A stretch of 64,000 nucleotides of DNA from an uncultured Acidobacteriota bacterium (GCA_963832495.1 CAWHUF010000005.1:1813766-1877765), one strand, 5' to 3'; positions 3,021-49,250 are shown, counted from the first letter of the stretch. The notes: generated by a model from the sequence alone, not told the origin. Made by a program: numbers and translations.

Positions 3021-3887
3021 ATGGCTAATATCATGGCTAATAAGAAAGTCTGGTTGATCACTGGAGCCAGCCGCGGCATGGGCGTCGATTTCGCCAAGGC
3101 CGCCCTGGCCGCCGGCCACGCGGTCGTGGCGACCGGCCGGAACACCGGCGCTGTCGGCAAGGCCGTGGGTGAGTCGGACGACCTGCTGGTCGTCAAGCTG
3201 GACGTCACCAGCCGTGCCGATGCCGAGGCGGCGGCGCAGGCCGCTGTCGACCGGTTCGGCCGTATCGACGTGCTGGTGAACAACGCCGCCAACTTTTATG
3301 CGGGCTACTTCGAGGAGCTGACGCCGGAGCAGATCGAGCGGCAGTTGGCGACGAGCCTCATCGGCCCGATGAACGTCACCCGCGCCGTCCTGCCAGTCAT
3401 GCGCAAGCAGCGCTCGGGGCACATCATCACGATCTCGTCGAGCGCGGGCCTCGTCGGCTTTGAGTTCTGTTCCGCCTACGCCGCGTCGAAGTTCGGCCTG
3501 GAGGGCTGGATGGAGTCGCTGCAGCCCGAGGTCGCGCCGTTCGGCATTACCACCACCATCGTCAACCCGGGTTTCTTCCGCACGGAGCTCCTCACGCAGG
3601 AGTCGACGGCCTATGCTGAGCCGTCCCTCGAGGATTACGCGGAGCGTACAGCGGCGCAGCAGGAGTGGTGGAAGGCCCAGAACGGCCAGCAGGGCGGCGA
3701 CCCGGCGAAGCTCGCCCAGGCGCTGGTCACGATCGCGAACGAAGAGCAGCCGCCGCGCCGCTTTATCGCCGGCGCCGACGCCATCGCCACCGCCGAGCAG
3801 AAAGTCGCCGATCTCAAGGCGCAGATCGAGGCCTATCGCGAGTTGTCCACGTCGCTCGCTATGGACGAGCCCGTGCTCGCCGGTTAA
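3021..3887 (+). CDS. SDR-family short-chain dehydrogenase/reductase
   Basis: TGASRGMG Rossmann motif, NNAA motif, and YAASK catalytic Y-x3-K. RBS GGGGAAAGGAGAA precedes the start. Confidence 0.85.
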   Translation: MANIMANKKVWLITGASRGMGVDFAKAALAAGHAVVATGRNTGAVGKAVGESDDLLVVKLDVTSRADAEAAAQAAVDRFGRIDVLVNNAANFYAGYFEELTPEQIERQLATSLIGPMNVTRAVLPVMRKQRSGHIITISSSAGLVGFEFCSAYAASKFGLEGWMESLQPEVAPFGITTTIVNPGFFRTELLTQESTAYAEPSLEDYAERTAAQQEWWKAQNGQQGGDPAKLAQALVTIANEEQPPRRFIAGADAIATAEQKVADLKAQIEAYRELSTSLAMDEPVLAG

Positions 3888-3899
3888 CGGAGGAGCAAC

Positions 3900-5026
3900 A
3901 TGCGAGCTCATAGGGAAAAGGAAATGAAACGTTTGCATACCTTCGCGCTGATCACGGCTGCGCTTATCACCTCCGCATGTGCAACCGCGAGTGGAAACAA
4001 CAAACCCGCGCCGCTGCTGATTCAGGAGCAAGGCAGCTTTGCGGCCGGCGGGACGGTCATCACCGCTCCCGGCACTTTCGACCCGATCAAACAGGGTGCG
4101 TACAACCCCGCCGGACCCGATACCGCGGGACAGACCTTGCACGGTGATCACGCCTATGTGTTCTACCAGGTCCCCGTCAATGCCAGAAAGCTTCCTCTCG
4201 TGTTCTGGCATGGCCACGGGCAGTCCGCCAAGACGTGGGAAACGACGCCCGACGGACGTGAGGGGTTCCAGAACATCTTCCTGCGCCGTCGCTTTCCGGT
4301 CTACCTGATCGATCAGCCACGGCGCGGCCGTGCAGCACGCAGCCGATGAACGTTGCGCCCACGCCCGACGAGCAGCTCTGGTTCGGTATCTTCCGCCTCG
4401 GTATCTGGCCGGACCTCTTCCCGGGCGTGCAGTTCTCACGCGATCCGAAGGCACTCGACCAGTTCTTCCGGCAGATGGTGCCGAACACCGGACCCTTCGA
4501 CATGGAAGTCAATTCCGACGCGGTTTCCGCACTCTTCGACCGGATCGGGCCGGGCATTCTCGTCACGCATTCCCAAAGCGGTACACTGGGCTGGCGCACG
4601 GCGATCAAGAACAGGAATGTCCGAGCCATCGTGTCTTATGAGCCGGGCGGCAACTTCTCTTTCCCGGAGGGCGAAGCCCCTGAGCCGATGACCCACGCCG
4701 GCGGCACGCTGAAAGCCGTCGAGGTGCCTCTGCCGGATTTCATGCTGCTCACGAAGATCCCGATCGTCGTTTACTACGGCGACAATATTGGCGGCAATAT
4801 TGCCGAGAAACCGAGCGTGAATCCAGGCCAGGACCAGTGGCGCGTCTTTTTTGCCATGGCAAAGCTGTGGCGCGATGCGGTAAACCGCCGGGGCGGCGAT
4901 GTCACCCTCGTGCATCTGCCGGAGCTCGGCGTTCGCGGCAATACGCACTTCCCCATGTCCGATCTCAACAATCTGCAGATCGCCGACCTTCTGTCGCAGT
5001 TTCTCGAGCAGAAGGGGCTGGACTGA
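3900..5026 (+). CDS. secreted alpha/beta-hydrolase-fold protein (lipase/esterase-like), split by one -1 frameshift near 4322-4345
   Basis: The N-terminal piece (3900..4349) carries a signal peptide ([20 protein letters not shown]), the HGHGQS oxyanion-like region, and [11 protein letters not shown]. The C-terminal piece (4346..5026, other frame) carries the nucleophile elbow HSQSG. The frame 2 reading is open for ~30 codons upstream of its ATG, so this is a single gene with an indel. Confidence 0.6.
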
Positions 5027-35536: not shown

Positions 35537-37283
35537 CGCCTCCGCCCACTTCCACCTTCCGGCTCAGGTAGGAGGTGGCGGCGCCGAGCTCGTCGCGCAC
35601 CGCGACCGCCACGGTCTGGGCACCGGCCGGCATCTGGAGCGTCAGGGTGTAGAGGTAGAACTGGCCCAGGGCACCCAGGACCTGCTTGCGGGGGATCTGG
35701 ATGGGCACGGGCACCTGCCGCGGGGGCGAGGTGCCGCCCTTGTCGTCGCCGGTGATGACCAGCAGGCGGAGCTTGCCTTCGTAGGAACCCTGCCGGTTCA
35801 CGACGGTCAGCCGGAACATGGGGATCCGGAGGCGGACGGGCACCGTGTAGCTGCCGTCCTCCGACCGGGTGGCATCGCCGATCTCCATGGTGATCTCCAT
35901 GGGGTTGTCCTCAATGCCGTGGACGAGCGCCGCGAGGGTGCGGTCCACGACCCTCTCCGCGAGCGGCTTGTCGCGGTAGCCCTGGCGGTGGCGGACCTTG
36001 AGGCCGGCTTTCCTGACCTTGACCTCGAGCTGGTGCTGGCGGCCGTCGCCCGTGTGGGCGGGCGTGTAGCCCAGGGAGTAGTAGACGGAGAAGTCCTCCC
36101 GCATGCGGCCGAGGTCGGGGAGGAAGTCGTTGACGTTCAGGATGGCCCGGCCGCCCGTGTCCGCGGCCATGGCGGAGAGCGAATTCTGGACGTTGGTGGT
36201 CTGCACCTGGTGGACCGTCATGAGCTGGAGCGCCCGCTCGCCGGGCTCGATCTCCGCGTCGGCCGAGGCGAGTCCCCGGAGGCCGCTGGCCTGGAGGGTG
36301 TAGAAGGTCACCCGGTTGGCGTTGGCGTGCGCCGTGAGATCCGCAAAGCGGTCGGCGACGCCATGCTTCTGGGCGTCGATGAGCGCCTGCTGGGCCGGGT
36401 ATCCGGCGCTCGCGGGCGCCCGGCCCGCCGTGGCGAACGGATCGACGACGACGAGCCCGGAGCTCCCCGCGCCGCCGCCGCAGACTTCGTAGACCACCTG
36501 GTAGAGCTCCTCGCCGGGGGTCATGGGGAGGCCGTCGCTGACGTAGAGCACAGCCTTGCGGCCCGGGATGCCAGCCAGCGAATTGACCAGGAACTTGAGG
36601 GCCCCGAGAGTCCGCAGGACCTCGTTGCGGGTCTGCTGGGCGTAGGTCTCGATGGGCGCCATCATCGCGTAGCTGCAGGGGTCGAGCGCGTTGATCGAGA
36701 ACATGGTGCGCAAGGCCGACCGCCGGTCCTGGTCCAGCTGGATGCCGCCGGGGGTGGCGACCTTCTCGATTTCCTGGAGGGTCTTGTCGAGGGCCGCCGG
36801 ATCGCCGGTGAAGGGCTGGCGCACCTTGAGGCCCAGGTCGTGGGTGGCGAGCATCACCCGGTCGAGGGGGCGGACGTTCCGGGCGAGGAACTGGCGGATC
36901 TGGTTCACGGCGCGCGTGCGGTTCTCCGGCCGCAGGTGGGCGTTGTCGACCAGCACCACCAGGTTCAGCCAGTCGTCCGGGATGGCCTCGGAGGCCGCCG
37001 CCGGAGCGGCCGGAGCCGCGGGCTCCGTGGCAGCGGGCTGAGAGGGGCTGTCCGGAACGGTCCGCGCCACGGCGGCGAAGTTGGTGATCGCGACCGGCTT
37101 GCCGTCTTCCAGGACCTCGAAGTCTTCCTTCCTGAGGCCGGTCACCCGCTTGCCGTCCTTGTCGGTGACGTAGACCTCGACGTTGACGACATTGACCTCC
37201 ACGACATCGCCGAAGGATTGGGAAGCGGCGGGCGCCGGAGGCCAGGTGAACAACAGGAGCAGGAGAGCGAGCCGGATTTTCAT
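35517..37283 (-). CDS. VWFA-related acidobacterial-type domain protein (TIGR03436-like), paralog 1 of 4
   Basis: Signal peptide MKIRLALLLLLFTWPPAPAASQ, then the family-defining N-terminus FGDVVEVNVVNVEVYVTDKDGKRVTGLRKEDFEVLEDGKPVAITNF, a VWA-like alpha/beta body, and a C-terminal beta region. The supplied ORF start (37403) is an N-terminal over-extension. Confidence 0.75.
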   Translation of the reverse strand: MKIRLALLLLLFTWPPAPAASQSFGDVVEVNVVNVEVYVTDKDGKRVTGLRKEDFEVLEDGKPVAITNFAAVARTVPDSPSQPAATEPAAPAAPAAASEAIPDDWLNLVVLVDNAHLRPENRTRAVNQIRQFLARNVRPLDRVMLATHDLGLKVRQPFTGDPAALDKTLQEIEKVATPGGIQLDQDRRSALRTMFSINALDPCSYAMMAPIETYAQQTRNEVLRTLGALKFLVNSLAGIPGRKAVLYVSDGLPMTPGEELYQVVYEVCGGGAGSSGLVVVDPFATAGRAPASAGYPAQQALIDAQKHGVADRFADLTAHANANRVTFYTLQASGLRGLASADAEIEPGERALQLMTVHQVQTTNVQNSLSAMAADTGGRAILNVNDFLPDLGRMREDFSVYYSLGYTPAHTGDGRQHQLEVKVRKAGLKVRHRQGYRDKPLAERVVDRTLAALVHGIEDNPMEITMEIGDATRSEDGSYTVPVRLRIPMFRLTVVNRQGSYEGKLRLLVITGDDKGGTSPPRQVPVPIQIPRKQVLGALGQFYLYTLTLQMPAGAQTVAVAVRDELGAATSYLSRKVEVGGGVTPSSK

Positions 37284-37293
37284 GGGGTCTTTC

Positions 37294-39198
37294 CTAGGGA
37301 TTGACGGCTGCCTTGTTGGCCGGGGGGACGGTGACGGCGCGGGAGAGGAACGAGGCGGTCGAGGCGATCTCGTCCCGCACGCCCAGCGCGACCCGCTGCT
37401 CACCCGGAGGGAGCTGCAGGGTCAGGGTATAGAGATAGAACTGGCCCATGGCCCTCAGCACCTCGTTGCGGGGGATGCTCAGGGGCACCGCCACCTGCCG
37501 CACCGGCGAGGTGGCGCCATCCTGGTTGCGGGTGATCACGAACAGCCTGAGGCTCCCCTGGAAGGTTTCCTCGTGGTTGAGGATCGCCAGCTTGAAGAGG
37601 GGGATCCGGAGCCGGATGGGAACCGCCACGCTGCCCGCGGGTCCGGGGCTGAGGTCGCCGATCTCGACGGAGATGTCGAGCGGGTTGTCCTCGATGTTGT
37701 AGAGGAGGGCCGCGAAGGTGTGGTCGATGACTTTTTCCAGGGGTGTCTTGTCGCGGTAGGTCTGGCGGTACCGCAGCCGCAATCCGGGCCGCTTGACCTT
37801 CACCTCGATCCGGTGCTCCCGGCCGTCGCCGCTGTGGGCCGGGGTGAAGCCGAGCGAATAGAAGCTCAGCGCATCCTCGCGCACCCGGGCGAGGTCGGGC
37901 AGGAATTCGTTGGCGTCGAGGATCGCGCGCCCGCCCGTTTCGTCGGCCAGGAGCTGGAGCGAGTCGCGGTTGCTCGCCCGCAGGGTGGCGCCGATGGAGG
38001 GGAACTGGAACAGCCGGTCCTCCGGTCCGAAGCTGGCATCGGAGGCATCGGAGGCCTGGAGGCCCGGCTGCAGGGTGTAGAGGGTGACCCGGTGCGCGTT
38101 GGCGTGGGCCGCCAGGGACTGGAGGTTCTTGGCGACGTTGTAGCTCTGCGCATCCAGGGGAGCCTGGGAGGCGGCCTGATAGGCGGCGGGACCGATCTCC
38201 CGGGCGTCGAAGACCTGATAGGTGTTGAGGTCCAGAGCGCCACCGGGTTTCGGTGCGCCCCCGCCTCCGCCATCGGTGGTCCTGCCCGCGATTCCCCCCT
38301 GGCTGAACCCGCTCGTACCGCCGCCGCCGCAGAGCTCGACCAGGAACTGGAACGTCTCCTCGCCGGGAGTGAGGGGAATGCCGTCGCTGATGTGGAGCAC
38401 CGCCTTGCGGCCCGGCACGCCGGAGAGCGAGTTGACCAGGAGGGTGAGAGTGCTGAGCGTGCGCAGCACCTCCTGGCGCCGCGCGGAGGCGTAGGTGTGG
38501 GCGGGGTTCGCGATGTTCTGAGGGCAGGGCAGGGGCTCTGGATCGAGGAGCGAGGCCTCCTGGATGGCGAACATGGCCTGCAAGGCCTGCCGCCGGTCCC
38601 GGTTGATGGTGTCGCCCTGCGCCGACAGCTTGCCCAGGCCGTCGAGCGCCTGGACGATGGCCGCCGGGTCGCTGCTGAAGGGGAGCCGCACGTTCAGGCT
38701 GAAGTCGTTGGTGACCACCATCACGCGGTCGCCGGGAGCGAGCTGGCGGGTCAGGAATTCGCGGAGCTGCCGGATGGCGCGGGCGCGGCTGGCCGGGCGG
38801 ATGTTCTGGTTGTCGAAGTAGACCACCAGGCTCCAGGCGTCTTCCGGAGCCCTTGTTGTCGAGGGGGTTGCCGAGGGGGTTGCCGAGGGGGCTCCCGGAG
38901 AGGTCTCCGAAGGCTCGCCGGCCGGTCCAGCGGCGGGCCGCGAAGGCTGGCCGCCGGTCACGGTTTCGAAGTTCGAGATTTCGACCCGCTTGCCGTCCTC
39001 CAGGAGCTCGAAATCCCCCTTGCGGAGGTCGGCCACCCGGTTGCCGGCCTTGTCCGTGACGTAGACCTCGACGTTGACGACGTTGACCTCCACCACCTCG
39101 CCGAAAGTCTGGGGAGCGGCGGGCGGTGCCGCTTTCTGCGCGGCGAAGGTCGGGGTCCAGGCAACCAGCAGGAGCGGAAGAACGGGCAGGACCTTCAT
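37294..39198 (-). CDS. VWFA-related acidobacterial-type domain protein, paralog 2
   Basis: MKVLPVLPLLLVAWTPTFAAQ...FGEVVEVNVVNVEVYVTDKAGNRVADLRKGDFELLEDGKRVEISNF. Intact 634-aa frame. The 10-bp intergenic gap to paralog 1 suggests co-transcription. Confidence 0.8.
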   Translation of the reverse strand: MKVLPVLPLLLVAWTPTFAAQKAAPPAAPQTFGEVVEVNVVNVEVYVTDKAGNRVADLRKGDFELLEDGKRVEISNFETVTGGQPSRPAAGPAGEPSETSPGAPSATPSATPSTTRAPEDAWSLVVYFDNQNIRPASRARAIRQLREFLTRQLAPGDRVMVVTNDFSLNVRLPFSSDPAAIVQALDGLGKLSAQGDTINRDRRQALQAMFAIQEASLLDPEPLPCPQNIANPAHTYASARRQEVLRTLSTLTLLVNSLSGVPGRKAVLHISDGIPLTPGEETFQFLVELCGGGGTSGFSQGGIAGRTTDGGGGGAPKPGGALDLNTYQVFDAREIGPAAYQAASQAPLDAQSYNVAKNLQSLAAHANAHRVTLYTLQPGLQASDASDASFGPEDRLFQFPSIGATLRASNRDSLQLLADETGGRAILDANEFLPDLARVREDALSFYSLGFTPAHSGDGREHRIEVKVKRPGLRLRYRQTYRDKTPLEKVIDHTFAALLYNIEDNPLDISVEIGDLSPGPAGSVAVPIRLRIPLFKLAILNHEETFQGSLRLFVITRNQDGATSPVRQVAVPLSIPRNEVLRAMGQFYLYTLTLQLPPGEQRVALGVRDEIASTASFLSRAVTVPPANKAAVNP

Positions 39199-39207
39199 GG
39201 CTTCCTC

Positions 39208-41120
39208 CTAAGGGCTTACCGCCACGGCCGCTGGTTCTGAAGGCCTGACGGTCACGGCCCGGCTCAGGTAGGACGTAGTGGCGGAGGTGTCGTCCCGTAC
39301 GCCCACGGCCACCTTCTGCTCGCCGGGAACGAGGTTGAGAGTCAGGGTGTAGACGTAGAACTGGCCGAGGGCGTGCAACACGTCATCCTTCGGGATCCGG
39401 ACCGGCACCGGCACCTGCTTGACCGCCGACGCGCGGCCATCCACCGTGCGGGTGGCCACCAGCACGCGCAGGTTCCCCTCGTAGACGCCGTCTCCCCGGA
39501 GCACGGCCACCTTGGCCAGCGGGATGCGCAGGCGCACGGGAAGGGCCACGGTGCCGGAGGGGCCGGGGGACTGCTCGCCCAGCTCCATCTCGATCTTCAG
39601 CGGGTTGTCCTCGATGTCGTAGAGCAGGGCGGACAGAGTGCGGTCCACGGCCCTTTCGATGGGAGTCTTGTCGCGGTAGCTCTCGCGGTAGCGGAGCTTG
39701 GCGCCCTTGCGCCTGACCCGCACCTCGAGCCGGTGCTCGCCGCCGGCCGCCTTGTGGTTGGGGGTGAAGCCGAGGGAGTAGTAGCTCTCGAAGTCCTCCC
39801 GCATGCGCGCCAGCTCGGGCCTGAAGTCGTTGACGTCGAGCATGGCCCGGCCGCCCGTGCCGTCGGCCATGGCGTAGAGCGAGTTCTGGAGGCTCGCCCG
39901 CTGGGCCGTGCCGATCGAGGCGAACTGGAACAGCCGGTCCGTGGTGCCGGCCGCGGCGTTGGAGGCGGCGGGCGCCTCGGCGCCCGAGGCCTGGAGCGTG
40001 TAGAGCGTGACCCGCTGGGCGTTGGAATGAGCCACCAGGGCACCGAGCTGCTTCACCAGGGTGTAGGTCTGGGCGTCGATGGGCGCCTGCGAGCCGGCCT
40101 TGTAGGACCAGGGGCCGAGCGCCGCCGCGTCATAGACCGCCAGGGGATCCAGGGAGGGCTGCCGCGGGTTCCGGTTGAGGACCCGGCCGTCTTCACCGGG
40201 CTCATCATCCTTGAGAATTTCCGTCTCCTGGGTGTTGCCCGGGGTGCTCCGTCCGAGGCCGGCTGAGCTGCCGCCGCCGCAAAGCTCCGCCAGGAACTGG
40301 AAGACCTCCTCGCCCGGGGTGGCCGGAATGCCGTCGCTGACGTACAGCACGGCCTTGCGGCCCGGCACGCCGGAGAGCGAGTTCACCAGCACGGTGAGAG
40401 AGCCCAGGGTCCGCGTCACCTCGTCGCGGCGGATCTGGGCGAATTCGTGGGCGGGCCTGGCGATTTCCAGAGGGCAGGGCCGCGGGTTCGTGAAGTCGGC
40501 CACCGACGCTTCCTGGATGGCCATGACCTCCCGGAACGCCTGCTGGCGCTGCAGGTCGATGGCGGCGCCGCCCGTCGCGAGCTTTTCGATTTCCGCCAGG
40601 GCCGTGCCCACGGCCGCCGGATCCGAGGTGAAGGGGAGCCGCACGGTGAAGCCCTGTTCGTAGCTCACCACCATCACCCGGTCCCGGGGGCGAGCTCCCG
40701 GCCCAGGAAGTCCCGGAGCTGCTGCAGGACCCGCGTGCGGTTGCCAGGGTGGAGATTGAAGTTGTCGACGTAGACGATGAGGTTCCAGAGGTCCTCGGGA
40801 GCGGCAGCGGCGGCCGCCTCTTCGGCCGCCGGGCGCGCGGGCGGTGTTTCCTCCCCGTCCTCCCTGGAGACGCCCGCCACGACGGCGGCGAAGTTGGAGA
40901 TGTCGATCCGCTTGCCGTCCTCGAACAGCTCGAAGTCCCGCTTCCGCAGGCCCGTGATGGGCTTGCCGTTCGCGTCCGTGACGCGGACGTCGACGTTGAC
41001 GACGTTGATCTCCACCACTTCCGTGAAGGAGGGGGGATCGAGCATCGTCGCGGACTGAGCGGTGGCGAGTGCCGGAACCCAGAAGGCCGGCAGGAGCAGG
41101 AAACCCGGGTGGAATTTCAT
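39208..41120 (-). CDS. VWFA-related acidobacterial-type domain protein, paralog 3 (one frameshift at about 40680 in a G-run)
   Basis: N-terminal piece 40674..41120 (MKFHPGFLLLPAFWVPALATAQ...FTEVVEINVVNVDVRVTDANGKPITGLRKRDFELFEDGKRIDISNF...LAPG) joins C-terminal piece 39208..40677 (...MVVSYEQGFTVRLPF...) across ccggggg. Confidence 0.7.
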
Positions 41121-41146
41121 GGCAAAATCTCCCTCAGGGACTGACC

Positions 41147-43062
41147 TCAGGGACTGACGGCCACGGCCGCCCTGTCCGAAGGCATGACGGTTACGGCCCG
41201 GCTCAGGTAGGACGTGCTGGCGGAGGTATCGTCCCGCACGCCGATGGCCACCTTCTGCTCGCCGGGAGCCAGATTGAGAGTCAGAGTGTAGACGTAGACC
41301 TGGCCGAGGGCGTGCAGGACCTCGTTCCTCGGGATCCGGACCGGCACCGGCACCTGCTTGACCGCCGAGGCGCGGCCGTCGGCCGTGCGGATGGCCACCA
41401 GAACGCGCAGGTTCCCCTCGTAGACGCCGTCGCCCCGGAGCACGGCCACCTTGGACAGCGGGATGCGCAGGCGTACGGGAAGGGCCACGGTGCCGGAGGG
41501 GCCGGGGGACTGTTCGCCCAGCTCCATTTCGATCTTCAGCGGATTGTCCTCGATATCGTAGAGCAGGGCGGCCAGGGTGCGGTCCACGACCCTTTCGATG
41601 GGGGTCTTGTCGCGGTAGCTCTCGCGGTAGCGGAGCCGGGCGCCCTTGCGTTTGACCCGCACCTCGAGCCGGTGCTCGGCGCCGGCCGTCTTGTGATCGG
41701 GAGTAAAGCCGAGAGAGTAGTAGCTCTCGAAGTCCTCCCGCATGCGCGCCAGCTCGGGCCTGAAATCGTTGACGTCGAGCATGGCCCGTCCGCCCGTGCC
41801 GTCGGCCATGGCATAGAGCGAATTTTGGAGGCTCGCCCGCTGGGCCGCGGCGATCGAGGCGAACTGGAACAGACGTTCCAGGGGGCCGGCCGCGGCGTTG
41901 GAGGCCGCCGGCGCCTCGGCGCCCGAGGCCTGAAGAGTGTAAAGGGTGACCCGCTGGGCATTGGCGTGGGCCACCAGGGCATTGAGCTGCTTGATCACGC
42001 TGTAGCCCTGGGCGTCGAGGGGCGCCTGGGAGACGGCCTTGTAGGCCCAGGGTCCGAGCGCCGACGTGTCGTAGACGGCCAGCGGGTCCAGTTCCTGGGA
42101 CTGGCCGGCTGGAGGGCCGCCGCCTCCCCCTTCGCCGTCACCATCTCCATAGTCGTTCTCCGGCGCGTTGCCTCGGTTGCTCTGCCCCAGGCCGGCCGTG
42201 GGGCCACCACCGCAGAGCCCGCCAGGAACTGGAAGACCTCCTCCCCGGGGACGGCCGGGATGCCGTCGCTGACGTAGAGCACGGCCTTGCGGCCCGGCAC
42301 GCCGGAAAGCGAGTTCACCAGAACGGTGAGGGAGCCCAGGCTCCGCAGCACTTCGTCGCGGCGGAGCTGGGCGTAATCGTGGGCCGGCCTGGCAATGTCG
42401 AGAGGACAGGGCTTCGGCTGAGGGTCGGCGAGCGAAGCTTCCTGAACGGTCATGATCTGCCGGAATGCATGCTGGCGGTCGGTGTCGCTGGAGCTGCCAC
42501 GCGTGGCGAGCTTCTCTGTCTGTGTCAGAGCCGCGCTGACGGCCGCGGGATCCGAGGTGAAGGGGAGCCGCACGGCGAGGCCCAGGTCGTAGCTCACCAG
42601 CATCACCCGGTCCCGGGGCCTGAGCTCCCGGCCCAGGAAGTCGCGGAGTTGCTTCAGCACCCGCGCCCGGTTGCCGGGGCGGAGGTTGAAGTTGTCGACG
42701 TAGACGATCAGGTTCCAGGCATCCTCGGGGCTCGCAGCAACCGAGGGGGAGGGGGCCTCTGCCGCTGCCGAGGAGGGCGCGGGCGTCTCCTCCCGGTCCT
42801 CACTGGAGATTCCTCTCTCGACGGCGGCGAAGTTGGCGATGTCCACCCGCTTGCCATCCTCGAACAGCTCGAAGTCCCTCTGCCGCAGGCCGGTGATGGG
42901 CTTGCCATCCGCGTCCGTGACGCGGACGTCGACGTTGACGACGTTGACGTCCACCGCTGCCGTGAAGGAGGGCGGATCGAGCATCTCCTCCTGCGCAGCT
43001 GCAAGCCCCGGGAGGCCGCAGACCAGAGACAGGAACAGGGCACAGGCAAGTGGGGCTTTCAC
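41147..43062 (-). CDS. VWFA-related acidobacterial-type domain protein, paralog 4 (at least 2 frameshifts, about 42000 and about 42230)
   Basis: MKAPLACALFLSLVCGLPGLAAAQ...FTAAVDVNVVNVDVRVTDADGKPITGLRQRDFELFEDGKRVDIANF. The central ~60 codons of the supplied ORF read as frame-garbage, while the 41147..41998 piece is >85% identical to paralog 3. Confidence 0.65.
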
Positions 43063-45979: not shown

Positions 45980-46112
45980 AGGGAGCGCGCATTCTACCCG
46001 ATGCCGCAGCAAGGGCTTGGCATCAGGAGGGAGCCGATCCTGACAGCCAGCAGGTTTGAGACGGGAGCTTGCATTGATTCTCCAGGCATATTGACGTACA
46101 GTAATAAGCAGG

Positions 46113-46508
46113 TTGTCGCAGCTCAGATTTGAAGGAGGCTTCATGCAGCTCCAGCCCAAGATCCGCCGTTTCCCTCGCATCCCGGCCGAGCACGCGGTCA
46201 TGGTCCGCCTCCTTGGAGTGAAGGCCTTCGAGGAGTTCGCCCGCACGCGGGTGATCGGTCCCGGGGGGTGTATGTTCGTGAGCGAGGAGTCGCTCGGCTT
46301 CGGCTCGCTCATGGAGCTGTCCATCGCGGTGCGCGGCCGGGTGGTGAAGACGGACAGCCGGGTCGTCTACGAGATCCGCAGGAGCCCGACCGAGCACCAG
46401 GTGGGCGTCGAGTTCCTGCGCATCAGCCCGGCGGACCGCTCGTACATCGAGTTGGTCGTGGCGGGCCGCAAGAGCGGCGGCACGGCTCCGGTCAGCCTGC
46501 CAGCCTGA
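46113..46508 (+). CDS. PilZ-domain (c-di-GMP-binding) protein
   Basis: RRFPR (RxxxR) motif followed by the D/N-x-S-x-G-G-like VIGPGGCMFVSEESL motif, in a 120-130 aa single-domain protein. Confidence 0.6.
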   Translation: MSQLRFEGGFMQLQPKIRRFPRIPAEHAVMVRLLGVKAFEEFARTRVIGPGGCMFVSEESLGFGSLMELSIAVRGRVVKTDSRVVYEIRRSPTEHQVGVEFLRISPADRSYIELVVAGRKSGGTAPVSLPA

Positions 46509-46969
46509 AGCTCCAGGAACGCCGTCCCCGGGATCGGGTTGAACCGGTAGGGTGGGATCTCGCGGAACCCGAGGGAGCGGTAGAGATCCTGCGCCCGCCC
46601 CATGGACGGAACGGTGTCCAGCCGCATGTGGGAGTAGCCGATCTCCCGCGCCTCCGCGATCACCGCTTCAGCCAAGGCCTTGCCGATCCCAAGCCCCTGG
46701 AAGTCCGGCCGCACGTAGAGCCGCTTCATCTCGCAGACGCCCTCTTCGATCTCCCGCAGCGCCACGCATCCTGCAGCCCGGCCGTCATGGAAGGCGAGGA
46801 GCAGCCGTCCCCGCGGCGGGGCGTAGGCCCCGGGTAGTCCCGCAAGCTCGGCCTCGAAGTCCTGGAACTCCAGATCGAACCCCAGCGAGACGGCGTACTC
46901 CTCGAAGAGGGCGCGGGCCTCCCGCAGGTGGTCCGGTGTCTCGGCCTGCAGGATCTCGGTCGGCGCCAT
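46367..46969 (-). CDS. GNAT-family N-acetyltransferase
   Basis: MAPTEILQAETPDHLREARALFEEYAVSL...GCVALREIEEGVCEMKRLYVRPDFQGLGIGKALAEAVIAEAREIGYSHMRLDT...LYRSLGF, i.e. acetyl-CoA motif A (Q/R-x-x-G-x-G/A). The supplied C-terminus overlaps the convergent PilZ gene by ~140 bp, so the true stop is uncertain and may hide a frameshift. Confidence 0.65.
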   Translation of the reverse strand: MAPTEILQAETPDHLREARALFEEYAVSLGFDLEFQDFEAELAGLPGAYAPPRGRLLLAFHDGRAAGCVALREIEEGVCEMKRLYVRPDFQGLGIGKALAEAVIAEAREIGYSHMRLDTVPSMGRAQDLYRSLGFREIPPYRFNPIPGTAFLELQAGRLTGAVPPLLRPATTNSMYERSAGLMRRNSTPTWCSVGLLRIS

Positions 46970-47060
46970 GGCAATATCATGGAGGAGAACGGAAGGTCTT
47001 GCCAGACGGCTCGCGGGACCGGCGAGACCCCTGACGAGGCCCGTCTCCCAAAGGAAGTTG

Positions 47061-47438
47061 CCGGCGAGAGGCAAAATGAGCCCTGAGATTGGTTCGTTCG
47101 CTCCGGCGAGCCGTTCGTTCCGCTCGGCGGGAGGCCGGTTCCGGCCGGCGAGAGACCCGTTCCGACCGGCGAGCCGATTTTTGACCCGGGCGAGCCGTTC
47201 GTTCCAGCCGGCGAGAGGCTCGTTCCGGCCGGCGAGTCAGGTTTGGGGTCAGGCAGGCCGCTCGTTCCGGTCGGCGGACGACCCGTTCCGGTTCAAAGAT
47301 GAATCGTTCCGGCCGGCGAACGATCTTTAAGGTCCGGCGAGCCACTCGTTCCGGTCGGCGGACGGCTCGTTCCGGTCGGCAGGCCAGCTTTTAGGCCGGT
47401 TAGGCCTTTCGTTCCTTCCGGCGAATCGTCATGGCGGT
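47061..47438. repeat. 17 to 18 copies of an exactly 21-bp degenerate tandem repeat (consensus CGGCGAG-N4-(C)TCGTTCCGG(C/T))
   Basis: Unit starts at 47103, 47124, 47145, 47166, 47187, 47208, 47229, 47250, 47271, 47292, 47313, 47334, 47355, 47376, 47397... (period 21). The array lies in the divergent intergenic region between the GNAT start (46969, minus) and the MNT start (47462, plus). It is open in two frames only because of GC richness; in-frame stops appear in degenerate units. Confidence 0.7.
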
Positions 47439-47461
47439 ATCATGGACGAGAACAGACGGCC

Positions 47462-47764
47462 ATGCCACTGTCTGAGAGGACTATGGACGAAGGAATCCGA
47501 GATCTGCTACAGCGAGGTGCGGCCCTCCTCCGAGACGCCGGGGCGCGGGAGGTCTACGTCTTCGGGTCCCTGGCAGCGGGCAAGGCGCGGGAAAACTCCG
47601 ATGTGGACTTGGCGGTCACGGGTCTGCCCCCGGAGAATTTCTTCACTGCAATGGCCCGTCTGGAGGATCTGTTCGATAGGGGAGTAGACCTGGTAGATCT
47701 GGACGACACGACTCCCTTCACCGCCTATCTCAGACAGAAAGGGCTCCTGCGGCGTGTGGCCTGA
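47462..47764 (+). CDS. minimal nucleotidyltransferase (MNT; HI0073/MntA-like antitoxin-type)
   Basis: VYVFGSLAAGKARENSDVDLAV = GS-x9-SDxD polymerase-beta-type NTase motif, ~100 aa. Confidence 0.75.
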   Translation: MPLSERTMDEGIRDLLQRGAALLRDAGAREVYVFGSLAAGKARENSDVDLAVTGLPPENFFTAMARLEDLFDRGVDLVDLDDTTPFTAYLRQKGLLRRVA

Positions 47765-48236
47765 CCTCAAGGATCAGATCGCGGTCGAAGAGGCCCAATT
47801 ACAACAACTGCTGGATGTCCACCGGCCCCTCTTGGAGAAGTGCCGGTTGGAGGAGCCGAACCCGATCGAGCTGTCGGCTCTGGCGGCGCTGCTGCATTCC
47901 TTCTACACGGGATTGGAGAACCTGTTCCGGCGAGTGGCCGTGGAAATTGACGGCGGGATCTTGCAAGGAGATCAGTGGCACCGGCGTCTCCTGCAGCAGA
48001 TGACCGAGCCTGGAGAGGCGAGACCCGCCGTCATCTCCTCGGAGCTCTACGATCGGCTCCATCCCTATCTCCAGTTCCGGCACGTCTTCCGGAATTCCTA
48101 TTCCTTCCAGCTCCGCTGGGACAAGATGGCGCCGCTCGTCCTCCAGTATGAAGAGACTTTCGCTGCTTTTCTGGCGGAGATCGCCGCTTTCTCAGAGCAG
48201 ATGGACAAGCGGTACGGACCATTCGACGTCCTATAG
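47754..48236 (+). CDS. HI0074-family nucleotidyltransferase substrate-binding protein (HEPN-like partner of MNT)
   Basis: Overlaps the MNT stop by 11 nt (operon). Four-helix pattern with ...ALLHSFYTGLENLFRRVA... and FRNSYSFQLRWD (compare the RN.TSH.Y family motif). Confidence 0.55.
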   Translation: MWPDLKDQIAVEEAQLQQLLDVHRPLLEKCRLEEPNPIELSALAALLHSFYTGLENLFRRVAVEIDGGILQGDQWHRRLLQQMTEPGEARPAVISSELYDRLHPYLQFRHVFRNSYSFQLRWDKMAPLVLQYEETFAAFLAEIAAFSEQMDKRYGPFDVL

Positions 48237-49250
48237 GCTCCTCTTCTCCAACCACCAGCTCCGGGCCACGAAAAAGAGACCTGTAAAGCCGATCATCGCA
48301 AACAGCGGAGAGACCAGCGCAAAGGCGTACTGGCCGTCGATCTCCCGGTTCAGCACCGACTCGGAGGGATACTCGGGATTGACGTAGCAGGGAATCCGGG
48401 TGTCCGGCGGCAGGCTCTGAACCACTTTTTCGGTCTCCTCGCTGTCGCCGACCGAGTTGCCCGAGAACTTGTAGCGGTTGGATTTGTACTGCCGCCCGTC
48501 AGCCGTATAGGTATAAACAACGTCGACGCTGTAGGTGGGGCCGCTTTCGCTGTCGCCCGGGTAGACGTGCACCGCGCTGCTGCGGATGATGCACGGCCGG
48601 GCCGGCCAGGATTTCGCCTCGACCGCCTTGAAAAAGACCGGGACGAAGTAGGACGCGAGGCCGAGACCGAAGATCAGGAAGAATCCGAAGAAGATGGTCA
48701 TGATGCCCCGCGGCCCCAGGCGGCTGAAGGCCTGGTTCACCCGAGCTCCCACCGCCTCCGCCCCGCGAGGCTGCCACAAGCCGTAGAGGCCGAATCCGGT
48801 TACGGCCGCGATCAATACAGAGAAAGGAAAGAAAAGGTAGACCCAGAAGCCCGGGCGCCGCAGCATGGATGACGACGGCTTCCGCGGGTTCACGTAGCAG
48901 AGGGCGCGAGACCCCGCCGGATAGCGGTCGACCAGGCGCTGGGCTTCTCCGATGTCTGTAGAGCTGGAGGGGTCGAACCGGTGGACGTCTCCGGTGTAGC
49001 GCCAGCCGCCGACGGTATAGCTGTAGAGGACCTGGAAGCTATAGAACTTGCCCGTATCCTCCGCGTGCTCCTCCACATTGCTGCTGAGGATGGTGCAGTC
49101 CCTCTCCTCCCAGGCATACGTTGCCGCCATGCGGAAGAAGCTGTAGACCAGGAGACCGCTGAACCACACCGTCCCCACGAAGAAAGGCAGGAGAAAGAGG
49201 CTGCTGAAGATCTTGCCCGGCAGGCCGGGGGGATTCCTTCCCATAGCCAT
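48231..49250 (-). CDS. membrane protein with two tandem DUF3592 domains
   Basis: Two repeats of TM-helix plus beta-domain, with ...CTILSSNVEE...YSFQVLYSYTVGGWRYTGDVHRF...CYVNP and ...CIIRSSAVHVY...YSVDVVYTYTADGRQYKSNRYKF...CYVNP. Confidence 0.6.
   Translation of the reverse strand: MAMGRNPPGLPGKIFSSLFLLPFFVGTVWFSGLLVYSFFRMAATYAWEERDCTILSSNVEEHAEDTGKFYSFQVLYSYTVGGWRYTGDVHRFDPSSSTDIGEAQRLVDRYPAGSRALCYVNPRKPSSSMLRRPGFWVYLFFPFSVLIAAVTGFGLYGLWQPRGAEAVGARVNQAFSRLGPRGIMTIFFGFFLIFGLGLASYFVPVFFKAVEAKSWPARPCIIRSSAVHVYPGDSESGPTYSVDVVYTYTADGRQYKSNRYKFSGNSVGDSEETEKVVQSLPPDTRIPCYVNPEYPSESVLNREIDGQYAFALVSPLFAMIGFTGLFFVARSWWLEKRSL

Follow-up and report, generated by a model that had tools for sequence, protein, structure and literature searches.

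A 64,000-nucleotide stretch of DNA from an uncultured Acidobacteriota bacterium (GCA_963832495.1 CAWHUF010000005.1:1813766-1877765; hereafter the window) carries an array of 21-bp tandem units between a GNAT acetyltransferase gene and a divergently transcribed gene for an MNT-type nucleotidyltransferase. The array is probably an old copy, decayed in part, of an interspersed repeat element that is modular, does not code for protein, and exists in many copies in soil Thermoanaerobaculia (Acidobacteriota). The element is built as a leader followed by n 21-bp units and a tail, and it occupies intergenic sites. In the window it is an insertion into a short spacer, bracketed by a duplication of that spacer. 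It belongs to a dispersed family, does not encode a protein, and is made of palindromic units held in a strict register.

An Insertion Between Two Divergent Genes

Three orthologous loci (L150, L151, and L152) were reached through GNAT homologs of 88-90% identity, and GNAT homologs place the window in the Thermoanaerobaculia. In L151 and L152 the GNAT and MNT genes are also divergent, with start codons 51 and 45 bp apart, respectively, and no array between them. Both genes of L151 are 90% identical to those of the window. With blastn, window positions 46065-46993 and 47427-47791 match adjacent, overlapping stretches of L151, and 46994-47426 finds no match. Since relatives with 90%-identical GNAT and MNT genes have an array-free spacer, the array in the window (~47005-47426) is an insertion that is dispensable and lies outside the control region of the two genes.

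On either side of the array lies one copy of a 41-nt direct repeat, at 46964-47004 on the left and at 47427-47467 on the right; the copies are 80% identical (z = 9 relative to shuffled sequence). The single spacer found in the relatives (CATGGCGGTATCATGGAGGAGAACGGACCGGTCGCGCTA...) aligns to both copies of this repeat. Read from the alignment, the two copies have derived states in common that are absent from the relatives, so the duplication arose in the lineage of the window.

From ~47006-47019 to ~47425, the units of the array run colinear with those of the arrays at L134, L104, and L033, three loci that are otherwise unrelated. This colinearity takes in a distinctive leader and the same degenerate units in the same places, and the four arrays differ in length by whole 21-bp units only. 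Unit-by-unit agreement with three unrelated loci indicates that the copy in the window arrived as a whole module. A second empty site is found at a dipeptidase gene that lies beside the L083/L155 array; its 78%-identical orthologs have a spacer of 20-30 bp and no array, with synteny lost downstream.

These observations show the course of events. A ready-made module of ~420 bp entered the tiny (~45-51 bp) divergent GNAT–MNT spacer, and ~41 bp of the spacer was duplicated so that one copy now adjoins each gene; the inserted element has probably decayed since. Each gene would have kept its own start-proximal spacer, which is perhaps why the insertion was tolerated. The element is probably largely selfish or neutral, copied between intergenic sites as are BOX elements, clusters of repetitive extragenic palindromes (REPs) or bacterial interspersed mosaic elements (BIMEs), and mycobacterial interspersed repetitive units (MIRUs). 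Any effect on GNAT or MNT would be a by-product of the ~460 bp of structured spacer that now separates two formerly back-to-back start regions. The locus provides a clean pair of filled and empty sites for an uncultured lineage, and it illustrates that a 420-bp structured array can fit between back-to-back genes, each of which retains a copy of the start-proximal spacer.

A Dispersed Repeat Family

A degenerate pattern of two and a half units was scanned against one genome per species, and most of what it returned were single chance matches. The scan also picked out seven contigs of the Thermoanaerobaculia metagenome-assembled genome (MAG) SMAG_U9264 (L003, L014, L019, L041, L045, L083, and L112), two contigs of SMAG_U6494 (L033 and L104), and one contig of SMAG_U1959. 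The arrays of SMAG_U9264 are far cleaner than that of the window. They form 63-bp super-repeats of three unit types (CCGGCGAGCCGTTCGTTCCGG, CCGGCGAGTGACTCGTTCCGG, and CCGGCGAGTCAACTTTTGACT), and the distal part of each is rich in CCGGCGAACGAACTTTAAGGT units. A family-specific 19-mer (CTTTAAGGTCCGGCGAGCC) recovers 27 soil-metagenome loci, nearly all with 6-18 recognizable units. Five of the 27 are the same DNA as MAG contigs and have identical arrays (SMAG MAG and IMG contigs, apparently from the same soil data). Once duplicates are removed, 26 arrays and 414 units are left, which puts the family at 26 arrays or more, at least 7 of them in one MAG. A scan of viral contigs gave five chance matches and no arrays. 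The initial annotation had pointed to genomes and relatives as the place to look for the 21-mer; the repeat indeed proves to be a family present at many loci, and it is absent from the GNAT–MNT spacer of L151 and L152. The searchable literature yielded no description of this family under its motif, as 21-bp intergenic tandem repeats, or among Thermoanaerobaculia repeats.

The head (CCGGCG) and tail (CGTTCC) of the units are near-invariant, and positions 7-13 are variable. A conserved block of 16 bp crosses the unit junction and includes a CCGGCCGG palindrome. Beyond the arrays, the window has no DNA or protein similarity to the loci from the genome scan, and megablast against the metagenome loci matches the array only. 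Neighboring genes differ from locus to locus (dipeptidase, FMN reductase, IS630 transposase, a DarT/DarG pair, and others), and convergent as well as divergent contexts are included. Genes in both orientations are found on both sides of the arrays with no orientation bias, as counted from open reading frames (ORFs) read manually and a few Pfam checks. Several arrays directly follow stop codons, with gaps down to 0-17 nt. A second subfamily is defined by its own leader, TTGGCGTGGCGGACCTGGCGGGAAGCGGGAAAAyCCGTCCGTTCCAC, and by a conserved tail, CCGCTCGTTCCGC joined to TCAGGCTTCGGACGTGAGCTCGTCGG.

Six multi-match loci from other phyla (L069, L057, L048, L058, L063, and L061) were considered as family members and set aside; they read as GGxxVPx heptads, look like coding linkers, and seem unrelated to the family, and the array of L069 is located after a CxxCH motif.

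Arrays are often found in variable regions rich in accessory genes. In L019 (3641-5355), a toxin–antitoxin pair of the DarT/DarG type (ssDNA ADP-ribosyltransferase and macro-domain protein) lies 1.3 kb from the array. Genes for Uma2-family nucleases flank the L118 array, and a gene for an IS630 transposase flanks the L033 array. In L045 (486-548) and L140 (~3760-3816), the forward array is directly preceded by a few reversed units in a head-to-head junction, which suggests occasional inversion, or that one array was inserted into another. An interspersed repeat of a second, unrelated kind (...GAGCCCGGAGGGCGCCAGACTTTTAGCCCAGGGCGTGAGCCCTGGG...) is found beside several arrays in either orientation (L019 2444-2739, L118 10703-10998, and L132 ~4100-4200) and yields spurious 'REPGGRQTFSPGREPWG' ORFs.

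Two other 21-bp periodic regions came to light. A MAG of Akkermansia muciniphila (L011 3579-3956) has ~18 head-to-tail copies of the 21-bp unit TCGGCGAGTGCATCGTTCCTG, starting right after the stop codon of an opposite-strand gene for an XerC/XerD-like recombinase, with GECIVPV in the third frame. This unit resembles the family motif (CGGCGAG...CGTTCC), a likeness that may just reflect selection by the search pattern. A different region in the Thermoanaerobaculia MAG SMAG_U1959 (L101 5480-6340) has CCGGCGGCTCGTCCGCC... units in a super-repeat of ~252-273 bp; this repeat may be coding, and membership in the same family is not obvious.

Layout and Register of the Array

When the sequence is laid out in rows of 21 bp, ~20 units fall into one uninterrupted register at 47019-47438, with 16 unit starts within 47103-47418 and four degenerate upstream units at 47019, 47040, 47061, and 47082. 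Row heads from 47019 to 47418 carry CCGGCGAG and the majority of rows close with CGTTCCGG, giving the core motif CCGGCGAG-N5-CGTTCCGG; in some units the tail is CTTTTGAC or CTTTAAGG. A second unit type has T-rich tails, found at 47166 (TTTTTGACC), 47229 (GTTTGGGGT), 47313 (CTTTAAGGT), and 47376 (CTTTTAGGC). Tandem Repeats Finder assigns a period of 21 to two segments, 47116-47173 and 47189-47380, and detects 63 and 84 bp as higher-order periods. Self-identity of the array is 0.51 at a lag of 21, compared with 0.18-0.37 at lags of 15-27. The coordinates and the exact period of two helical turns given in the initial annotation are borne out, and Pfam supports its placement of the array between divergent GNAT and MNT/HepT genes. 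Its single tail type does not hold, since the four T-rich units end otherwise.

The 16-mer CGTTCCGGCCGGCGAG (<=3 mismatches) has 22 matches in the window, half of them (11) inside the array, all on the plus strand and in register; shuffled sequences give 4.3 +/- 2.1 matches and never 22. With related arrays as queries, nhmmer finds no second array in the 64-kb window, and the E-values of the window array against related arrays range from 1e-34 to 7e-46. The core of the array (Table 1) has T-rich units at 47166 and 47229, and the first CTTTAAGGT unit (47313) closes it. Eleven units lead from the leader unit with CCTGAG to this CTTTAAGGT unit, a spacing also found in L104 and L033.

Table 1. Features of the repeat element and its flanks, in window coordinates
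Feature	Position	Strand	Basis or remark
Inserted repeat element, whole: head-to-tail 21-bp units, 422 bp	47005..47426	+	No counterpart in L151/L152; colinear with L134, L104, L033
Leader: degenerate units with conserved sequence (CCGGCGAGaCCCCTGA..., CCGGyGAGAGGsaAAAyGAGC, CCTGAGrT..CGTTCGCT)	47005..47102	+	Position-for-position common to L134, L104, L033
Core: 11 units in strict register, mostly hairpin-type CCGG-CGAG-NNN-CTCG-TT-CCGG	47103..47333	+	Row layout, spacing
Distal units, progressively degenerate, ending the element (...CCGGCGAATCG)	47334..47426	+	Right-hand limit of homology with L134
Left copy of duplicated target, beginning barely within the GNAT start codon and reaching into the former GNAT–MNT spacer	46964..47004	.	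41-nt direct repeat; aligns to the single spacer of L151/L152
Right copy of duplicated target, now the MNT-proximal spacer	47427..47467	.	L151 1359-1388 matches both window 46964-46993 and 47427-47456
GNAT acetyltransferase gene (flanking, outside the element)	46367..46969	-	Pfam PF00583, E = 1.9e-19; start 46969 confirmed
MNT-type nucleotidyltransferase gene, antitoxin-like (flanking)	47483..47764	+	Pfam Polbeta, NTP_transf_2
HepT-like (HEPN) toxin gene (flanking)	47754..48236	+	Pfam PF20797 (HepT-like_2), E = 1.1e-33

Assemblies often go wrong at tandem repeats, and the number of units could in principle be inflated or the array chimeric. An artefact of this kind is scarcely credible here. 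The units are heterogeneous, independent copies in other samples have them in a colinear order, and five related arrays are identical in two assemblies. No exact repeat inside the array is longer than 20 nt; assembly with k >= 21 therefore has a unique solution, and the number of units presents no ambiguity.

Coding Potential

Two open frames run over the array, one on the plus strand (46968-47330, 120 aa) and one on the minus strand (46977-47345, 122 aa). They raise the prospect of a heptad-repeat protein, which would read PASRSFR on the plus strand, RRPERxx on the minus strand, or GExxVPx in the third plus frame. The period is a multiple of three, frameshifting indels are lacking, and unrelated pattern-matching arrays from other phyla look like coding GGxxVPx linkers. 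Such a protein is nevertheless very improbable, being refuted as far as sequence data allow. Among the four colinear copies, each of the six frames is closed by a stop in one copy or another, and the ratio of nonsynonymous to synonymous polymorphism (pN/pS) is 0.7-1.3 in all six frames; together these results establish that the array is not coding. In well-preserved copies, stops fall in three plus frames and one minus frame of every super-repeat.

Other attributes of the array agree with this conclusion. The start codon is not conserved, as the ATG of the plus-strand ORF in the window (47075) is ACG in L134 and L104. Conservation comes in blocks of eight consecutive bases with a variable block at positions 7-13; variability is thus contiguous and does not follow third positions, and the array has no 3-base periodicity. 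The ORFs of the array have no Pfam match, and the Joint Genome Institute (JGI) called no gene within the L155 array. A protein search with the minus-frame ORFs returned only 2 database proteins and was swamped by low-complexity candidates. The initial annotation, which described the two open frames and regarded the heptad ORFs as a probable artefact, was right on both points. For genome annotation, the arrays yield spurious ORFs of 100-190 aa that are arginine-rich or of the 'PASRSFR' type, and they should be masked as repeats in MAGs of Thermoanaerobaculia and other Acidobacteriota.

Probable Constraint on the Nucleic Acid

With the sequence CCGG-CGAG-NNN-CTCG-TT-CCGG, the standard unit forms an imperfect palindrome. 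It alternates with T-rich units (CTTTTGACT and CTTTAAGGT), which gives rise to 63-bp super-repeats where copies are better preserved. In the unit hairpin, 86.8% of cells are paired over 109 distinct units, as opposed to 24-57% with slid partners. A consensus segment of 126 nt folds on both strands (z = -4 to -5). Among the colinear copies, core positions are 77% identical and middle positions 62%.

The register is kept with the same strictness across the family. Of 291 head-to-head spacings, 269 are multiples of 21, and the off-register spacings are mostly spurious internal matches in compensating pairs or are found at array edges and flanks. The four colinear copies differ at 20-35% of sites and have zero small indels inside the arrays, whereas in the surrounding DNA, aligned with that of relatives, about one gap accompanies every 9-24 mismatches. 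The phase corresponds to two helical turns, and the T-tracts all lie on one helix face. Imperfect palindromes and the lack of any register-breaking small indel in any array suggest constraint at the nucleic-acid level. The register is upheld either by unit-wise recombination that purges off-register units or by selection on phase. In the favored explanation, that of a mostly selfish or neutral element, the units would act as nucleic acid: they may fold into hairpins when either strand is single-stranded DNA or RNA, or they may serve as phased sites for a host protein on one face of the double helix.

The main rival holds that the arrays are cooperative protein-binding platforms on double-stranded DNA (iteron-like, centromere-like, or nucleoid-organizing) in which CCGGCGAG/CGTTCCGG sites, set exactly two helical turns apart, would be bound by a protein of the host or one encoded by an element. 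T-tracts phased every 42-63 bp would aid bending or wrapping, and the arrays would be under selection, possibly silencing or insulating divergent promoters locally. We regard this explanation as possible though not probable. It accounts well for the exact 21-bp register in all 26 arrays, which lack small indels though neighboring DNA gains them, for the conserved block over the unit junction with its palindrome, and for unit types that are common to different genomes. The form of the array also resembles that of iterons and of ParR-type or omega-type centromeres. However, no candidate gene for a binding protein is linked to the arrays, whose neighbors are unrelated, the array is dispensable at the GNAT–MNT locus, and tandem amplification alone also preserves the period.

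A role as a replication origin or plasmid centromere was rejected, with at least 7 arrays per genome and many of them wedged directly after stop codons. Pfam identifies no Rep, Par, initiator, or integrase gene within ~4 kb on either side of the array; the initial annotation had proposed a check of the full contig for a nearby Rep/initiator-like gene or integrase. No AT-rich unwinding element is found either, with GC at 0.6-0.71 across 46.9-47.6 kb. The iterons or regulator-binding array tied to a promoter region that had been suggested for this site do not fit a repeat found in >=26 unrelated intergenic contexts and missing from relatives. A false lead is removed in this way: the array is no evidence for a plasmid or phage origin and is no part of the HEPN/MNT system.

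The arrays could also represent an undescribed mobile or copied DNA module whose phase-locked units act as a platform for a dedicated protein, with insertion through breaks ~40 bp apart. Breaks staggered this widely would be comparable to those in repeat duplication by Cas1-type integrases. Such a module would explain both the 41-bp target duplication in the window and the lack of a register-breaking indel in 26 arrays, and we consider it unlikely.

A repetitive structured RNA is another explanation for hairpin-capable units. Transcripts of the array would serve as a ToxI-like type III antitoxin, or as a sponge built from 21-nt hairpins, with the neighboring HEPN RNase or a different RNA-binding protein as the target. 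The array does stand directly upstream of MNT–HepT on the same strand, the consensus segment folds as described above, and leader and tail are conserved within subfamilies. On balance, an RNA of this kind is quite unlikely. The link to HEPN/MNT is not conserved, and the array was rejected as a partner of these genes: MNT occurs without an array in L151 and L152, and other arrays lie beside unrelated genes in all orientations. The two strands fold equally well, and the copy in the window is not significantly stable. Rfam gives no match at the gathering threshold or even at E <= 1, and scans for tRNA and tmRNA are also empty. In consensus scans of the window array and two others, no promoter turned up either within an array or next to one. 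Around the window array there are 3 terminator-like matches against 1.3 expected from shuffles, which is no excess; the only one to overlap the array (minus strand, 47074-47058) falls in the leader, and the two other arrays have none.

Several results weigh against a largely selfish, copied element, which remains the favored explanation. Hand comparison found no convincing terminal inverted repeats. The 8-15 kb pieces of array-bearing genomes contain no associated transposase gene or gene for a REP-associated tyrosine transposase (RAYT), and no copying mechanism is apparent. Flanking direct repeats are not significant at 24 other arrays, and the duplication, detectable at the window copy only, may be an accident of one event. 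Covariation in the hairpin is weak, with a score of 0.151 against 0.137 in shuffles that was matched by 20 of 500 shuffles. As RNA, the window copy is not clearly stabler than shuffles (z = -1.4 on the plus strand and -2.2 on the minus strand). Finally, the lack of small indels and the conserved order of units suggest more selection than a purely selfish element needs.

The retention of a two-helical-turn register over long divergence hints that some protein or structure reads the array. If a reading partner exists, the family offers a tractable handle on nucleoid and repeat biology in a phylum with almost no genetics.

Comparison with Known Repeat Systems

In kind, the array is closest to the interspersed repeats of the BOX, REP-cluster, and MIRU types, and it carries the defining tags of none of them. 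Strictly head-to-tail 21-bp units, super-repeats of three units, copying of whole arrays, and a long target duplication at the one analyzable site set it apart.

In Streptococcus pneumoniae and S. suis, BOX elements (boxA-(boxB)n-boxC) are dispersed intergenic composites with end modules around a variable tandem core (PMC3049150). They form hairpins, do not code for protein, and are seen as dormant non-autonomous elements able to perturb neighboring genes (PMC3049150). The array has a similar organization of leader, units, and tail with ends conserved within subfamilies, and end modules around a tandem core are found in the family as two conserved leader types and the tail ...CCGCTCGTTCCGC TCAGGCTTCGGACGTGAGC.... 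In contrast to BOX, the units are 21 bp in length rather than 45 bp, with up to ~20 per array, and three unit types form the 63-bp super-repeats in GC-rich sequence from a different phylum. Elements of the BOX kind are characterized by terminal inverted repeats similar to those of an IS element and by short target duplications. The major leader and the tail agree at 9 of 14 positions in a hand comparison, which is not a convincing terminal inverted repeat, and the duplication here is ~41 bp and is found at one analyzable site only. Copy numbers of boxB within an element are smaller than the ~20 units of the array.

REPs are short imperfect palindromes of high copy number that are extragenic, often just after genes, and sometimes in large head-to-tail clusters (PMC3733652). 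By definition, one end of the palindrome is tagged with a tetranucleotide, either GTAG or CGTC (PMC3733652). The units of the array are likewise short imperfect palindromes in many extragenic copies, as in REPs and BIMEs. Unlike members of the GTAG and CGTC super-families, the consensus has no GTAG, and CGTC is found only inside some variable middles and never as an end tag. The units are also strictly head-to-tail with zero spacer, while REPs typically form head-to-head dimers with variable linkers, and the entity that is copied appears to be the whole array rather than a single unit.

MIRUs are mycobacterial intergenic minisatellites, used as variable-number tandem repeat (VNTR) loci, in which tandem repeats occur at many chromosomal intergenic loci and sometimes abut stop or start codons. 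The arrays are like them in placing tandem repeats in intergenic regions at many loci. A MIRU unit, by contrast, measures 40-100 bp and is located within an operon, where small ORFs are coupled to the genes on its flanks; the present units have 21 bp and closed frames and are found in convergent and divergent contexts too.

Systems that use direct repeats for other purposes are more distant. Iterons and parC-type centromeres have direct repeats of ~17-22 bp at about two helical turns, and the exact 21-bp spacing of the array falls within this range. They are distinguished by what the array lacks (a Rep or Par gene, an AT-rich region, and DnaA boxes), by the many arrays per chromosome, and by the absence of the array from this locus in close relatives. 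Type III toxin–antitoxin systems of the ToxI kind also have tandem direct repeats immediately upstream of an operon for a ribonuclease-type toxin, but the linkage of array and toxin is not conserved and the units are 21 nt instead of ~34-45 nt. The HEPN/MNT pair is presumably a protein–protein (type VII-like) system that needs no RNA antitoxin. CRISPR arrays are different again: only ~5 nt inside each 21-bp unit varies, there are no unique spacers, as had been recognized initially, and no cas genes are found in the flanks.

The Locus and Its Flanking Genes

The neighborhood of the array is syntenic with the chromosomal loci L150-L152. Flanking genes within ~4 kb on either side belong to the Pfam families GNAT, PilZ, MNT, HepT, DUF3592, DUF2891, HlyIII, Rce1-like protease, and Transgly_assoc; two ORFs on the left side have no Pfam match. 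The GNAT protein is 90% identical to P0010 over 155 aa with the same N-terminus, and the N-termini of orthologs confirm the initially assigned start at 46969. For MNT, which is 90% identical to the L151 gene product over 93 aa, the assigned start at 47462 has to be moved to 47483 (MDEGIRDLLQ...), the position supported by orthologs. HepT is truncated in L151 and absent in L150.

The GNAT ORF is 200 aa in length, and orthologs stop after ~158 aa. For about 120 homologs of 154-176 aa, alignment is confined to the first 155 residues of this ORF. Its 40-odd additional codons (window 46367-46508) overlap the convergent PilZ gene (46113-46508), and the usual stop codon of the GNAT gene appears to have been lost or shifted.

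Compared with window 47754-49205, L151 (1000-1060) has HepT reduced to a stub of 28 codons, and ~1.4 kb (HepT and most of DUF3592) is missing, which leaves MNT an orphan. At the GNAT–DUF3592 position of L150 (4730-4874, an ENA contig) there is neither the window array nor MNT/HepT. A different tandem repeat is found there instead, with a period of 64 bp, 2.2 copies, and hairpin-like subunits of ~21 bp, e.g., AGCACAGGCTCCGAAGCCAAA. It is flanked by a remnant of sequence from the end of MNT and the start of HepT. The GNAT–DUF3592 locus looks like an exchange hotspot for toxin–antitoxin genes and minisatellites.

Elsewhere in the window, positions 36000-43000 hold four tandem paralogous units of ~1.9 kb that are 60-89% identical, with start-to-start distances of ~1.78-1.95 kb. 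These units are probably a tandemly duplicated gene family.

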